Source of the DNA: a virus
Taxonomy: Duplodnaviria > Caudoviricetes
Direction: 5' to 3' (one strand)
Length of the DNA stretch: 32,322 nucleotides
IMG/VR virus record: IMGVR_UViG_3300032272_000050
Location: 1 to 32,322 of that record
Part shown: piece by piece, positions 1,379-31,992 of the stretch
Layout of the letters: each line of letters begins with the position of its first letter
How positions within the stretch are numbered: the stretch's first letter is position 1
The notes under the pieces: model-generated
The model's database searches: none
Told to the model about the DNA's origin: nothing
The model's input: the letters and a program-made list of their open reading frames with translations, nothing else
Translations under genes and position numbers: made by a program

Positions 1379-1656
1379 TGTGCGGACGTGAACCAAATCA
1401 AGCCAGCGATGACCGCTATCTTGCCCGCGAAATTGATGAATTAATTGAGGCCCAAGACGACATGACTTTCGCCTCACTAATGAACGCAGTCGCTGCTTCA
1501 GGCATCTATCTGAACCCACGAGGTGAAGAGGTTGCTACCAACCGTGTTGAGACGGCCTTGCGGCGTCACAGAGAGGCTATGGCGGGAGCTGCGCAAACAA
1601 GCTTGTTAGACCTGACCAACAAATGCCCCAACTCGACGGAGGCAGATAATGGATGA
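1378..1656 (+). CDS. Hypothetical phage protein
   Basis: TAATG stop/start overlap, GGAG RBS. Confidence 0.7.
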   Translation: MCGREPNQASDDRYLAREIDELIEAQDDMTFASLMNAVAASGIYLNPRGEEVATNRVETALRRHREAMAGAAQTSLLDLTNKCPNSTEADNG

Positions 1657-1951
1657 GCTTTACGAAATCATTGAGCGCGGGCTGTCCCTATGTAGCCGTG
1701 GTCGGACCCTCAATGCTCAATGGGAAAAGTCGGGAAGCGGCACACCCAAAGCATGGGCCGATGAAGTCTATGACGACCAATTGACACAATGGGAGATTGA
1801 CGCTCGCAAATTGGTCAACAAACGCCCCGTTCACTGCGCCACATTTGATGAGCAAGTGATATCTGAAAAAGACCGCGCCAAAGTCGGTGACATTCTTGAC
1901 AGCTTGGGCACACCTGACAAACAACGCCCGCTTTCTGAGGCCAAAAAGTGA
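1649..1951 (+). CDS. Hypothetical phage protein
   Basis: GGAGG RBS, overlaps the upstream gene end. Confidence 0.7.
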   Translation: MDELYEIIERGLSLCSRGRTLNAQWEKSGSGTPKAWADEVYDDQLTQWEIDARKLVNKRPVHCATFDEQVISEKDRAKVGDILDSLGTPDKQRPLSEAKK

Positions 1952-2061
1952 CTGTTATTATATTCATTTTATGTGGTGCTGGCAGCGGATTATTGGCAGG
2001 CATAATAGCGAAAGCGCCCGGAAACAATCTAAGACGGGGGCCAACAGATAGAACCCGTTAA
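1948..2061 (+). CDS. Possible 37-aa single-pass membrane peptide
   Basis: GTGA start/stop overlap with GAGG upstream; MTVIIFILCGAGSGLLAGIIAKAPGNNLRRGPTDRTR (hydrophobic N-terminus, basic tail). Confidence 0.45.
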   Translation: MTVIIFILCGAGSGLLAGIIAKAPGNNLRRGPTDRTR

Positions 2062-2108
2062 CAAAAACCAAAATTTCTGCTAAACATCACCACTCGGAGG
2101 GCATACCG

Positions 2109-3320
2109 ATGGCACGATTAAAAGACAAAATTCGATATCTTGTAATAATTCCCAACGCTGATGGCAGTTTTCGCGCCTACTGGCGGCCATCCACATATCT
2201 GCGGCAGCAACACGGCTGGAAACAGGAATGTCTGGGCACCAGCCTTGGTCAAAACGACTTGCATGATGCAAAAAGCCGCGCCATGGAACTCAACGACCAG
2301 ATGGATGCCTGGCGCCGCGGCGATCAGCCAACCAACACCGGTGTTGCCCGCGCCGCGCGCCAGCAGCTGATGATGGATCATTTGATTGATACTTGGTTGC
2401 GCTCGGCTGAATTTTCCGCGCTCGCGCCGTCAACCAAAAGATTTTACAGCGCCCACGCACCAATAGTGCAGGCCTGGGGCAAAGATATCCCGGTCAGGGA
2501 AATCACAGCCAGCATGGTTCACGGCCTCTACCGCGAATTTGCCGCGCACCACCCGCGAAAGGCGCAAGCGCTTGTGCAAACCGGGCAGGCGGCCTTCACA
2601 TGGGGCACGCTCAACGCATCGCAGATCGGCAAGGGTATGCCGCAAAGCGTTAATCTCAGTCCGTTTGCCAGGCAAAAAATGCATCACAAGCCCAAAAAGG
2701 GCGCCATATGGTCGCCGGCGGCAATCACGGCCATCGTAGAGGCCTCGGATACCTACCAAAACAAAGACGGCGTCACCTATCACAGCATCGGCACCGCGGT
2801 TATGATCAACGAATGGGTCGCGCAGAACACCTGCGATATTATTGCCCTGCAGCGCGCATGGTATGTGGAAGGCTCAATTGATTTTGCCCGCTCCAAAACC
2901 CAAATTGGTGTCAAGGTTCAGCTGCCGGCCGCCGTGCAAGCGCGGCTTGAACAAGAACGCACCCGGCAATTGGCGCGGAACCTGTCACCCATGAGTTTGC
3001 TGGTTTGTGACGGCTCGGGTATGGCGTGGCGGTACCGGCATTTTTGCCGCGTGTTTGCAAAAATTCGGGACTTTGCGGCAAAAACCAACCCCGGTATCAG
3101 CAGTGAGATTACCGGCCTGCATTTCAGGGAGTTGCGCCACACCGGGGCCACACGAATGGACGAAGCAGGGGTGCCGCGCGCCCAAATTGCAGCGGTGATG
3201 TGCGTTTCAGTGGATACCGCAAACAACATCATCGACAGATACAGCAGCCGCACAAATAAAATGGCAGACGCTGCTATCGAGAAGCGCATCGCCTTTGAAT
3301 TGGCCGCAAAAAATAAGTAA
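2109..3320 (+). CDS. int: Tyrosine recombinase/phage integrase family protein with degenerate catalytic motifs
   Basis: GGAGG RBS; N-terminal arm-binding-like region, LAPSTKRFY core-binding helix, SKT lysine, FRELRHTGAT box II and C-terminal DRY tyrosine; adjacent to a tRNA-derived att core. Confidence 0.88.
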   Translation: MARLKDKIRYLVIIPNADGSFRAYWRPSTYLRQQHGWKQECLGTSLGQNDLHDAKSRAMELNDQMDAWRRGDQPTNTGVARAARQQLMMDHLIDTWLRSAEFSALAPSTKRFYSAHAPIVQAWGKDIPVREITASMVHGLYREFAAHHPRKAQALVQTGQAAFTWGTLNASQIGKGMPQSVNLSPFARQKMHHKPKKGAIWSPAAITAIVEASDTYQNKDGVTYHSIGTAVMINEWVAQNTCDIIALQRAWYVEGSIDFARSKTQIGVKVQLPAAVQARLEQERTRQLARNLSPMSLLVCDGSGMAWRYRHFCRVFAKIRDFAAKTNPGISSEITGLHFRELRHTGATRMDEAGVPRAQIAAVMCVSVDTANNIIDRYSSRTNKMADAAIEKRIAFELAAKNK

Positions 3321-3379
3321 GTTTTTCTAATGTGCACGCGAAGTATCAGATGCAAAACCAGAACGAAGCAAGCACAAAA

Positions 3380-3616
3380 AGTCTACCGTCTGGGGTTAAA
3401 AAAGTCTACCGCGCAATAATATTACAAAATTAACTTTTAATAAACTATTGAAAATAAAGGAAAAAATGGTGCCGGCACCAAGATTCGAACTCGGGGCCTG
3501 ATGATTACAAATCAACGGAATAATAATATATTTCAATGACTTAGGTTTTTAATTATACCAAAATATCCATTAAAAAACGCCAAAAGTCTACCGCGTGAAA
3601 CCATAACAGTCTACCG
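3380..3616 (+). repeat. Four direct repeats AGTCTACCG (putative integrase arm-type sites)
   Basis: Copies at 3380-3388, 3403-3411, 3585-3593 and 3608-3616: two pairs, each with 23-bp periodicity, flanking the tRNA fragment. Confidence 0.85.
3467..3516 (-). mobile_element. att core: 3' portion of tRNA-Thr(UGU), attP-like
   Basis: Minus strand reads GTTGATTTGTAATCATCAGGCCCCGAGTTCGAATCTTGGTGCCGGCACCA: anticodon arm with TGT, T-arm with GTTCGAAT, 3' acceptor strand and CCA. The 5' acceptor strand and D-arm are absent. Confidence 0.9.
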
Positions 3617-3697
3617 CAAAAATAAACAAAGATATCTAATTTGAAAGAAACGATATCTGAAGCCAGAAAACTTTCATAGATCCTCGCGTTATCACTT

Positions 3698-4861
3698 CTA
3701 ATGGTTGAGCCCAAATTTTACAGTATGACGCCGCGGGTAATGTCGTTGATTTATTGCATTCCTTACAACCAAACCGACCGCCATTCCTATTAGGGGATAG
3801 GAAAAATACTTTGCAAAAAGCATCAATATTACAGCAGAGATAAAACACATAACCGCGGATAAATATAGCTTATCAATTTCATTACCGGATGGCCTTAATC
3901 GGAAGGCACAAAAAACTATTGTAGCTAGTAATAGCCCAAATCCCAATAAGCCAGTATCAACCCAAGCCGACAAAATATTGTGCACATAGTATCCGTCCCG
4001 ATATTCTCCGTAGCTACCCAATATAGGGCTTTGCATTATGGTACGCCAAGCTTCAGGAACTAACTCGGAGCGCGCAATAAATGAATCATCAGCCGTTAAT
4101 GTTAAAAGCCCCCAAACACGGCTATCAGGAAACCAAGAATTTAATATAAATGTAAAAATCCCTAGAAAAATGGCGGAAAACAAAATCATCTTCATGAAGG
4201 ATTTACCGCTTGGCCCGCGGCGTAAAAATTCAACAGCGATAGTGGAAAAAACAAAGGCGATAATCTCTGAACGTGCCCCTACAGCAAAAAAAGTTGCCAA
4301 AGTAACCGAGAGAACAGTCCATTTTAATTTTCCATCAAGATTAGGCATCACAAAAAATGACATTGCTAAAATAGCCATTGCAACGGCCTGATAATTAAAG
4401 CGAACAAAAACCAAGTCCAATATCCCGCCAACAGACAAAATAGGAGATGTCCACAATATCAATGCAGAAATCATAATTAACGCAGCCACTATCCTGTGAA
4501 GCGAACGACTATCTATGTTAGCCGGCCAATGTCGGGCCATGAGATAAAGTCCCAACATTTGAATAAGACCAGCCATATGTGATTTTTCTACATTTTCGCT
4601 TGCCTCTCCAAAAAGAAGCGACAGGAAAAACACTAACAAAAATCCAAAAAATGTCACGCGGGAGGCTAGCGCATATTGTTTATACCGCATAAATGCTGCG
4701 CTGGACTTTAATGCCAAAATGGGAATACACAAAGCCGCGAGCAGTGTTAATCCACCAGGAAACTGGAAATTTGAATAGCCCGCAAAAAAAAGAACCTGCG
4801 AAACCACAAAAGCAGGAAACAGTATATAGAATGCGGTAACGGCAGGGTAAAATCTTAGCAT
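3698..4861 (-). CDS. O-antigen ligase/polymerase (Wzy_C-like) polytopic membrane protein; moron
   Basis: Many hydrophobic segments, with GARSEIIA and HNILSAWVDTGLLG motifs typical of WaaL/Wzy_C proteins; visibly AT-rich relative to the structural genes. Confidence 0.8.
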   Translation of the reverse strand: MLRFYPAVTAFYILFPAFVVSQVLFFAGYSNFQFPGGLTLLAALCIPILALKSSAAFMRYKQYALASRVTFFGFLLVFFLSLLFGEASENVEKSHMAGLIQMLGLYLMARHWPANIDSRSLHRIVAALIMISALILWTSPILSVGGILDLVFVRFNYQAVAMAILAMSFFVMPNLDGKLKWTVLSVTLATFFAVGARSEIIAFVFSTIAVEFLRRGPSGKSFMKMILFSAIFLGIFTFILNSWFPDSRVWGLLTLTADDSFIARSELVPEAWRTIMQSPILGSYGEYRDGYYVHNILSAWVDTGLLGFGLLLATIVFCAFRLRPSGNEIDKLYLSAVMCFISAVILMLFAKYFSYPLIGMAVGLVVRNAINQRHYPRRHTVKFGLNH

Positions 4862-20004: not shown

Positions 20005-21012
20005 TCAAGAGGGATATGCAATTTTATAGAAATGCGCGCGCTTTGCGACAGCTTCCTTGTGGCCAGGATCGCGCGGATTGCGCAGGGCTTCCTGGAAGCC
20101 GGTGTCCAGTTTCAGTTCTTTCAGGGTTGCTTTCGCATCCGCGGGCGAAGTACCAAAACCACCAGCGGCGCCGCCAGATGTCAGCACATCTTCGCCCAGC
20201 ATGGTGCCTATTCTATGCATCATCCGCAACACGCCCGGACCACCCACCGTCGTCTCAAGGGTGTCGATGGCTTCAGCCTGTTTTTGATCATCATACAGGC
20301 CCAGATGCGCGGCTGCGGCTTTCGCCAAACTCAGGTTACCGTCATATTCACCGCCCCAGTCTTTTTTCAGGGCTTCCGTTGTCGATTTAAGATCAGCTGC
20401 AGAGGCTGCTGCAATTTGCTCGTGCGCCTCTTTCTGGTGGTCAGCAAACAGGGAAATCAGTGGCTGCAATTGCTGCGGCAATAACTTATGTTCAGCTGCA
20501 ACCTCTAAAACCTTGGCTTCGAGATTTTCATCATACGCCATGTCCTGCGGCAGCTCGGGTCGCTCAACCTTGTAACCGGTCGCATCGTCTGGGGCACCCA
20601 GCTTGCTGTAAAAATCGCCTGCCAGCGGATCAGCCGCACTAGGCAACTCAACGGCATTTTTATTACCGATCAATTTTTCAGCGCCGCGCCAGCCATCGCC
20701 GAGCCTGTTCAACAATGTTGGCAGGTCCATATCCTCGGACACATCAAGGCGCTTTGCCTTCATCAGGGCTAAATTTTCCTCTGACAGGCCATCAAAAAGG
20801 TTCTTTCCCGGTTCGGGTGCCGGTGCGGGTGCTGGTTCAGGTGCCGGTTCGGGCGCAGGCGCAGGTGCTGGGGCGGGCTCAGGCTCAGGCGCAGGCGCAG
20901 GTGCTGGTTCGGGTGCTGGGGCGGGCTCAGGCGCAGGCGCCGGGCTACCAGCCGGCGGGGTCGCTGGTGTCATCATTTGGGCGGCGGTGCCCGGTGCTGG
21001 ATCTTGTGGCAT
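20005..21012 (-). CDS. Capsid scaffolding protein with Pro-rich N-terminus
   Basis: GGAGG RBS; located between portal and capsid; AEKLIG, KLGAPD...Y, LKKDWGGEYD and PGHKEAV motifs. Confidence 0.8.
   Translation of the reverse strand: MPQDPAPGTAAQMMTPATPPAGSPAPAPEPAPAPEPAPAPAPEPEPAPAPAPAPEPAPEPAPAPAPEPGKNLFDGLSEENLALMKAKRLDVSEDMDLPTLLNRLGDGWRGAEKLIGNKNAVELPSAADPLAGDFYSKLGAPDDATGYKVERPELPQDMAYDENLEAKVLEVAAEHKLLPQQLQPLISLFADHQKEAHEQIAAASAADLKSTTEALKKDWGGEYDGNLSLAKAAAAHLGLYDDQKQAEAIDTLETTVGGPGVLRMMHRIGTMLGEDVLTSGGAAGGFGTSPADAKATLKELKLDTGFQEALRNPRDPGHKEAVAKRAHFYKIAYPS
20808..20945 (-). repeat. Degenerate 6-bp tandem repeat encoding (PA/PE)n
   Basis: Units such as CCTGCG/CCTGAG/CCAGCA/CCCGAA encode PAPAPEPAPAPE... 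Confidence 0.9.
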
Positions 21013-27077: not shown

Positions 27078-27286
27078 CCGATACTCGCACTGTCAATGGT
27101 GTTTTCATTCACATGAACCGCAAATAAATTGCGGCCGGTGATATCAACGCCGGGCATATCTTCCAGCATCGGCGGAACCAGTTCTGAACTAATCAGCAGA
27201 TCATGCGACTGCGACACCGACACCCGGGCCGTAGGGTCAAAATCATCAAACCGGTCGATAATATCTTTTAGCTGGTAAAGCCTCAT
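27074..27286 (-). CDS. Hypothetical protein
   Basis: 4-nt overlaps on both sides; 70 aa. Confidence 0.65.
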   Translation of the reverse strand: MRLYQLKDIIDRFDDFDPTARVSVSQSHDLLISSELVPPMLEDMPGVDITGRNLFAVHVNENTIDSASIG

Positions 27287-27624
27287 AGCGAACCACCGGA
27301 TAAAAGAGGATTATCAGGATCAAATTCCACATGCAGGTGTGTATCTTCAAGCACCACATCATAGTCGCCGCCGAGCCGCTGTTGCATCGCCGCGGCAAAA
27401 TACGACTTGTCACTATCGATCAAATGCCGGGTTCTGAAATCAACAGCGTTGCCCTCATAATGTTTTGAATTTTTGGAATGCTTACCGTCGCACAGGCTGG
27501 TAACCACACAGTTGGCATTTTCTTCAGATAAAATCTGGTTGGCGACTTCGATTGCATGCCAAATTTCAGGGCGTACACAGCCGGTTTTGCAATAGCCTTT
27601 CACGCTGTTTTTAAACTGGATCAT
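27283..27624 (-). CDS. Zn-dependent M15-family (Hedgehog/DD-peptidase fold) peptidase, candidate endolysin
   Basis: VVTS...H...SKHYEGNAVDFR (SxHxxGxAxD) and HLHVEFD zinc ligands; GGAGG RBS. Confidence 0.85.
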   Translation of the reverse strand: MIQFKNSVKGYCKTGCVRPEIWHAIEVANQILSEENANCVVTSLCDGKHSKNSKHYEGNAVDFRTRHLIDSDKSYFAAAMQQRLGGDYDVVLEDTHLHVEFDPDNPLLSGGSL

Positions 27625-31179: not shown

Positions 31180-31437
31180 TCATTCGGCGGCCTGAATATT
31201 TTGAGATGCGTCCGGGTCAGGGTCAGCCTGGGCGAGTGCCAGCATTTCTTTGTGCCATGAATTGGCTGTGACATAACCGCCGGACCACTGGAAAATTGTC
31301 AGGGTTAGAGCAGCGCCAGGCTTTTGTTTGCCCGAGCGAAGCTTGCCAACATAACCGTCACTAATCACCAGCTCCGCACCAATTTCAAGGTTGCTTTTAC
31401 CGCTAGTTTCGCAAAATTGATCAAATCGATTTGACAT
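31180..31437 (-). CDS. Cro-like HTH regulator
   Basis: HTH...GKQKPG...SGGYVTANSW pattern; divergent from the repressor; GGAG RBS. Confidence 0.8.
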   Translation of the reverse strand: MSNRFDQFCETSGKSNLEIGAELVISDGYVGKLRSGKQKPGAALTLTIFQWSGGYVTANSWHKEMLALAQADPDPDASQNIQAAE

Positions 31438-31461
31438 CGCCGCTTTTCTCCGATTGATCGA

Positions 31462-31546
31462 AAACATACTATATGTACGTTTTTAGTCAAATATTTTCTC
31501 ACAATTGACAATCGTTTCGTCGATACCAACATGTACTATATGTACG
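31462..31546. promoter_or_regulatory. Divergent switch region with two operator copies
   Basis: TACTATATGTACG at 31467-31479 and 31534-31546; minus-strand TTGACT-16 bp-TATGTT promoter overlaps the first copy; TTGACA at 31505. Confidence 0.7.
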
Positions 31547-31548
31547 GC

Positions 31549-31992
31549 ATGAATGTGCAGCCAGAAAATCGTATAAAAGAATTGAGGAAATCCAAGGGGT
31601 TCACTCAAGAAACACTCGCGGCCAAAATTGGCGGCGTGTCAGCTGGCCAGATCCGAAAACTGGAAGCCGGCCTTGGCGGCCTTACAATATATTGGCTACG
31701 GAAAGTTTCGGCGGCACTCGATGTTTACCCGAGCGACTTGCTTATTGAGACTGACCGCAACCCTCACACGCGCGCGATCGGCCAAATGAATGCGGAACTG
31801 CTTGCCGACATTCTGCAGGTAGCGCTGGAATATAATCAGAATATCAATAAATCCAATGTTGGCCGGTTGACACCGTCCGCGATGGCCGCAGCTGCGGCCA
31901 CGCTATACAATGAATTATCAACAGACGCGCCACCAAAAAACGTGATAAGGCAGCAAGCCAGTATCTTGTTTAAATTTGCGGCGACACAATAA
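31549..31992 (+). CDS. CI-like XRE-family repressor
   Basis: NRIKELRKSKGFTQETLA...IRKLEAG...ALDVYPSDLL is an XRE HTH; start could be 31531, 31540 or 31549. Confidence 0.88.
   Translation: MNVQPENRIKELRKSKGFTQETLAAKIGGVSAGQIRKLEAGLGGLTIYWLRKVSAALDVYPSDLLIETDRNPHTRAIGQMNAELLADILQVALEYNQNINKSNVGRLTPSAMAAAAATLYNELSTDAPPKNVIRQQASILFKFAATQ

Follow-up and report, generated by a model that had tools for sequence, protein, structure and literature searches.

Roughly 9% of tyrosine recombinases lack the first catalytic arginine (Arg-I), and PMC2943603 leaves undecided whether these proteins are rewired or dead. In IntDOT, Arg-I is absent and a downstream Arg substitutes for it, as stated with reference to Kim et al. 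2010 in the available part of PMC8138268. The same part gives a profile for the Int_CTnDOT subgroup in which the node two places ahead of the catalytic Lys has Arg as its most probable residue (p 0.27) and the Arg-I position is occupied by Arg (0.33), Ala (0.14), Ser (0.10) or Asn (0.08). The IntDes subgroup, described there for Desulfovibrio only, shows a shifted first Arg and has Tyr at His-II. The phage proteins MrpR (YopR) of SP-beta and SroF of phi3T have the tyrosine recombinase fold and keep Lys and Tyr, with changed catalytic Arg and His. According to the available part of PMC10516654, MrpR has 3/7 catalytic residues and consists of a core-binding and a catalytic domain only, and the repeat to which it binds was found by genome-wide profiling.

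Here we describe an integrase encoded in a phage DNA stretch of 32,322 nt, which was analysed at its full length and is called the window. We predict, with fairly high confidence, that it is a lambda-type integrase which remains active with its arginine relocated and both catalytic histidines missing. It shares with lambda Int (1z1b, 1p7d) the three-domain fold, the spacing from box I to Lys (21 and 23 residues) and arm repeats flanking the core, but differs in having N240, R261, R340 and V366 in place of R212, Q233, H308 and H333. Like IntDes it has a shifted first Arg and a replaced His-II. Like IntDOT and IntCTnDOT it lacks Arg-I, carries Arg at the second position ahead of the catalytic Lys and possesses an arm-binding domain, and its residue at Arg-I, Asn, is among those of the subgroup profile. 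The IntCTnDOT enzymes, as far as the available part of their description goes, belong mainly to conjugative or mobilizable elements of Bacteroidota, whereas the integrase described here belongs to a lambda-like phage family whose genome matches are mostly from Alphaproteobacteria. That part of PMC8138268 mentions no member of the IntCTnDOT subgroup with a loss of His-III and a change from Gly to Cys. Because the integrase is nested in the lambda-like phage family, its swap would be convergent with that of IntCTnDOT. A search of the contig with PF17293, which we take to be the arm-binding domain of the IntCTnDOT subgroup, gave no match, while a B. thetaiotaomicron control matched. Unlike MrpR, as far as the available part of its description goes, the integrase has an arm domain, adjoins attP and keeps Asp, Lys, Arg-II and Tyr (D243, K263, R343, Y378) while gaining an Arg (R261), so that its changes are not a loss without replacement.

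The integrase gene and its setting

The integrase ORF (2109..3320, + strand) encodes 403 aa in an intact frame, comprising arm-binding, core-binding and catalytic domains. The product matched the integrases of PHROG 1 (E 1.3e-11), and the lone sequence scored 17.1 bits against a Pfam cut-off of 27.1. A PDB search with the single sequence gave no match; a 43-row family profile did match lambda Int. In the AlphaFold model (mean pLDDT 89.7) the lambda-like fold is directly seen, the best fold match being lambda Int 1z1b (Foldseek E 9e-11; VIA Z 19.9, rmsd 10.3, 332 aligned). The protein thus has the three domains and the tyrosine recombinase fold of lambda-type integrases, and departs from their canonical R-K-H-R-H/W-Y set, which here reads N240, K263, R340, R343, V366, Y378.

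The virus record is linear (32.3 kb), about 85% complete and also encodes a terminase, a head-tail adaptor, a major head protein, a primase and an HTH repressor. No second recombinase of the same family was found in the contig, the product of 2109-3320 being the sole integrase-family match; as the contig is about 85% complete, another recombinase could be absent from it. Contig depth is about 8.5. Over 1500-3490 the window agrees letter for letter with a Logan contig of run X1, but X1 is possibly the source sample or the same reads, so this contig is not independent.

Relatives were collected in a family alignment of 205 sequences, made up of 48 found by word searches, 147 that the best 150 of 11,837 profile hits added, and 10 genome loci; locus L008 was left out as a duplicate of P0010. 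P0022 and P0191, with aberrant or missing C-termini, are outside the trees and inside the count of 205.

Active-site residues

Alignment of the 43-row family profile with lambda Int was gap-free from box I to Lys235, so that N240, R261 and K263 correspond to R212, Q233 and K235 of lambda Int (numbering from Table 1 of PMC2943603). The residue changes, all on the + strand, can be read directly from the codons. In box I (2826..2837), codons and profile alignment place Asn240 (AAC, 2826) at the Arg-I position, with Asp243 (Asp/Glu-I) retained. The motif Arg261-Ser-Lys263 (2889..2897) contains the likely relocated catalytic Arg (CGC, 2889) at the Lys-2 position, and the catalytic Lys (AAA, 2895). 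Arg261 lies at the end of strand beta-2, which spans residues 256-260 in the AlphaFold model. In box II (3126..3137), codons and the 205-row alignment show Arg340 (AGG, 3126) in the place of His-II and a retained Arg-II, Arg343 (CGC, 3135). The same alignment has Met364-Cys365-Val366 (3198..3206) instead of Thr-Gly-His; Cys365 (TGC, 3201) precedes the His/Trp-III position, which is lost to Val366 (GTT, 3204). The nucleophile is Tyr378 (TAC, 3240..3242).

Throughout the family, Asp243 and Arg343 are present in 205/205 sequences, Lys263 in 204/205 and Tyr378 in 203/205. Arg occupies position 240 in 198/205 members and His position 366 in 195/205, so the losses of Arg-I and His-III are real. Position 340 is poorly conserved (Met in 95, Arg in 38, Lys in 23 and His in 6 of the 205). 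The earlier note had aligned Arg-I to Asn (AAC) and His-III to Val (GTT), and had listed Lys, the second Arg and Tyr as remaining; all of these assignments agree with the family alignment. Its argument that the intact frame makes a sequencing error unlikely is borne out by independent relatives carrying the same residues. The note had further counted RELR in place of HxxR among the missing residues: Arg340 does stand at His-II, but given the counts for that position this is not unusual.

D243, R261, K263, R343 and Y378 are all kept in three proteins, the integrase, P0002 and P0048, which share 45-51% identity. With 72 of 200 catalytic-domain columns invariant, the chance of these five residues being kept by that background is 0.6%.

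Distribution of Arg240 and Arg261

At the Arg-I position, seven of the 205 proteins have another residue (6 Asn, 1 Tyr), and each of them carries Arg at the Lys-2 position (261). None of the 198 members with Arg-I has Arg261; there the residue is Gln (195), Thr (2) or Pro (1). This either/or pattern is a direct observation: Arg240 and Arg261 are never both present and never both absent in the 205 aligned proteins. We take Arg261 and Arg240 to act at one and the same site, which would require a single Arg and explain why the two do not co-occur. P0041 was rejected as a further Arg261 carrier, since its Arg is an insertion effect in one alignment and two other alignments give Gln. Separately, P0081, P0179, P0162 and P0084 retain Arg-I and were noted for Thr or Pro in place of Gln at Lys-2, P0084 with Thr at the catalytic Lys.

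When the two trait columns were left out of a 203-row FastTree, no fewer than 4 state changes were required to account for the swap. A 24-row IQ-TREE of nearest neighbours (run under the non-mixture model LG+F+G4, with constrained searches kept short) clustered P0020 and P0024 with the canonical P0121 (98/99), and the AU test on these rows rejected a single origin for all seven proteins (p 0.016), for six (0.043) and for five (0.004). Sparser sampling did not reject it (AU p 0.16 and 0.26). In view of these sparser sets, the non-mixture model and the short constrained searches, we limit the claim to a swap that would have arisen at least twice, probably three or four times.

A genome scan detected 11 related loci, all 11 with Arg-I. 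Scans of viral contigs revealed no relatives of the integrase, and a metagenome scan yielded nothing beyond the window's own contig and a single N-terminal fragment.

Histidine losses and support of the tyrosine helix

Cys-Val or Cys-Leu replaces Gly-His at position III in 3/205 proteins, namely the window integrase and its relatives P0002 and P0048 at 45-51% identity. Both histidines are also missing from four relatives that bear Arg-I, in which position III is Gln or Trp. Position III is more variable than usual, as the Arg-I-bearing P0087, P0175, P0117, P0143 and P0170 have Trp (2) or Gln (3) there.

The main role of His/Trp-III is described as propping the tyrosine helix, a job that a Leu, Met or Val two positions ahead of it, or a large residue at the fourth position past Arg-II, can also perform (PMC2943603, section 22). 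The corresponding residues are Met364 and Ala347 in the window integrase, and Ala364 and Ile347 in both P0002 and P0048. All three of these proteins without His-III thus have a bulky residue at a position that Cre data predict to support the tyrosine helix. Met364 occurs in 1/205 family members and Ile347 in 32/205; since Ile347 is this common, the pattern is supportive, not decisive.

The attachment site

The anatomy of attP can be read directly from the window and agrees with the earlier description of an intact att site beside the gene. Its core (3467..3516, - strand) matches the 3' 50 nt of tRNA-Thr(UGU), from the anticodon arm to CCA, and begins 147 bp downstream of the integrase gene. 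Compared with tRNA-Thr(UGU) genes, 49/50 positions are identical in 15 of 20 viral loci, which were retrieved using a pattern from the attP core itself, and identity ends at 3516. Crossover is likely to occur in the anticodon loop (3505-3511), by which the tRNA would be rebuilt. The core is flanked by two pairs of AGTCTACCG on the + strand, the left at 3380-3388 and 3403-3411 (3380..3411) and the right at 3585-3593 and 3608-3616 (3585..3616), with the copies 23 bp apart in each pair. These are the 4 exact copies in the window (0.03 expected), and from their position they are predicted to be arm sites of the integrase. A core with flanking arm repeats thus adjoins the integrase gene as in lambda-type systems, and because phage genes lie on both sides, attP is in the unintegrated form. 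The canonical relatives L008 and L009 show the same layout, 111-122 bp from the 3' end of tRNA-Thr(CGU).

The 15 best-matching tRNA-Thr genes depart from the attP core at position 3496 alone. Run X2 contains a short contig (depth 797) that matches 47 nt of the core exactly (3467-3513), which shows that the window's letter at 3496 does occur in a tRNA or element.

No attL or attR junctions were detected in contigs read from parts of runs X1 and X2, contigs being able to show presence, not absence. No integrated copy of any Arg-swapped member was seen, and the DNA context is that of the window's own copy alone. A sample of one class (5 + 401 genomes) contained no host tRNA within 3 mismatches of the core. 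A scan for paired arm repeats gave 4 loci, none with a related integrase, and a scan with the core gave 20 whole tRNA-Thr genes, none with a family integrase match. Matches to a dif consensus numbered 6 at 3 mismatches (2.0 expected), with none in 3320-3700.

Other genes in the window

Beside attP, a hydrophobic 387-aa ORF (3698-4861, - strand) matched PHROG 19842 'polymerase' (E 1.6e-29) and weakly Wzy_C (E 1e-3); its product is likely to be an O-antigen polymerase for lysogenic surface conversion. The divergent pair at 31183-31992 consists of the HTH repressor (31531-31992, + strand) and a small Cro-like ORF (about 31180-31467, - strand) without family match, and is likely to form the lysis-lysogeny switch. 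An ORF cut by the contig end (32084-32322, + strand) matched the N-terminal domain of the anti-restriction protein ArdC (E 1.8e-20). Among the replication genes, a 113-aa ORF (27283-27624, - strand) showed a weak match to a Hedgehog-signalling domain (E 0.003); its product is presumably a zinc peptidase-type endolysin. The putative scaffold protein (20715-21012, - strand) starts with a long Pro-Ala-Pro-Glu repeat.

Discussion

On balance we favour, with somewhat less confidence than for activity itself, the wider reading that the protein works as a tyrosine recombinase although both catalytic histidine positions hold other residues and its first Arg has moved to the beta-hairpin, in a family in which Arg has flipped several times between mutually exclusive positions. 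In this mechanism the integrase would recombine attP with a host tRNA-Thr gene while holding the four arm repeats through its N-terminal domain, in the manner of lambda. Arg261 is predicted to reach the scissile phosphate in the place of Arg-I, and together with Arg343 would hold the phosphate and stabilise the transition state, possibly helped by Arg340. Lys263 would activate the 5' leaving group, and Tyr378 would attack from a Met/Val/Cys platform. The tyrosine helix, having no His-III, may be propped by Met364 (by Ile347 in P0002 and P0048).

Cre itself may have an Arg two residues before its Lys (Lys201), and it is not rescued, which would count against the reading of Arg261 as the replacement. 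For Cre Arg173 the replacements described as active are limited to Lys and His, Cre with His289 changed to Arg is inactive, and Val is absent from the active substitutions of Trp315 listed in PMC2943603. Each of these results counts against activity here, and the integrase combines all three corresponding changes.

They likewise favour a conserved pseudo-enzyme, that is, a three-member clade without catalysis which is kept for DNA binding or architecture at attP like the SP-beta repressor MrpR. Three of the six canonical positions are changed, and in Cre the equivalent substitutions either inactivate the enzyme or do not appear among those given as active; a long stem leads to the clade, such an option is named for recombinases without Arg-I in PMC2943603, and MrpR, in the available part of PMC10516654, retains fold, Lys and Tyr without recombining. 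We nevertheless regard a pseudo-enzyme as unlikely, as it leaves unexplained why Arg261 is found at every loss of Arg-I and never otherwise. Arg-II is retained here, whereas the crucial Arg and His of MrpR are reported, in the part available, to be substituted. The exact repeats are at attP only and not genome-wide as operators would be, attP is intact, and the phage already has an ordinary, separate HTH repressor, all of which supports activity of the integrase, as do the lack of another family recombinase in the contig and the matching layout of L008 and L009 beside tRNA-Thr. The earlier note had left the choice between a pseudo-enzyme and a clade with a rewired active site; the latter is supported and the former has become less probable. 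Its suggested partnership with host XerC/D finds no support, with no dif-like site at att. It had also named an alignment placing another Arg in the active site as grounds for giving up its reading, and Arg261, which it overlooked, would largely supply this Arg.

An active enzyme in which the lost contact comes mainly from Arg340 or Asn240, Arg261 being secondary, is a variant partly counted in the preferred reading and in itself rather improbable. Arg340 is enriched among the proteins without Arg-I (6/7 vs 32/198 of the others), but it accompanies Arg-I in those 32 proteins while Arg261 does so in 0, and P0110, which lacks Arg-I, has Met340 and yet Arg261.

Simple decay of a formerly canonical integrase, for which the 17.1 bits under the Pfam cut-off of 27.1 would speak, is very improbable. 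The earlier note had named relaxed selection beside canonical close homologues as the mark of such decay, but P0002 and P0048 share the changes at 45-51% identity with open frames, and the att site is intact. A close relative in run X2 shows 5 synonymous and 2 non-synonymous changes among 7 listed differences, a synonymous excess (p 0.013 at a neutral 25%) taken from two depth-2 pieces covering the N-terminal half only; it may count, as a thin argument, against decay, and bears on no other alternative. An assembly or alignment artefact, conceivable at a depth of only about 8.5 with a matching contig that may stem from the same reads, is practically refuted by independent proteins with the same residues and by the gap-free alignment to lambda Int.

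Relocation of the arginine has a precedent in IntDOT; what the integrase family described here would add is the recurrence of a clean swap and the absence of both histidines. Literature listings, which did not extend to subscription papers, showed no article dealing with this family or with an integrase that has neither histidine. The family supplies natural matched pairs (R/Q vs N/R) of several origins and a compact substrate (attP and tRNA-Thr), which turns the question of rewired or dead recombinases into a simple swap experiment. If the integrase is active, neither histidine is needed, and if the preferred reading is true, the required catalytic set would shrink to Arg, Lys, Arg and Tyr, together with a hydrophobic prop. 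Temperate phages would then be undercounted by annotation tools that take such integrases for dead or overlook them because they score under the Pfam cut-off.
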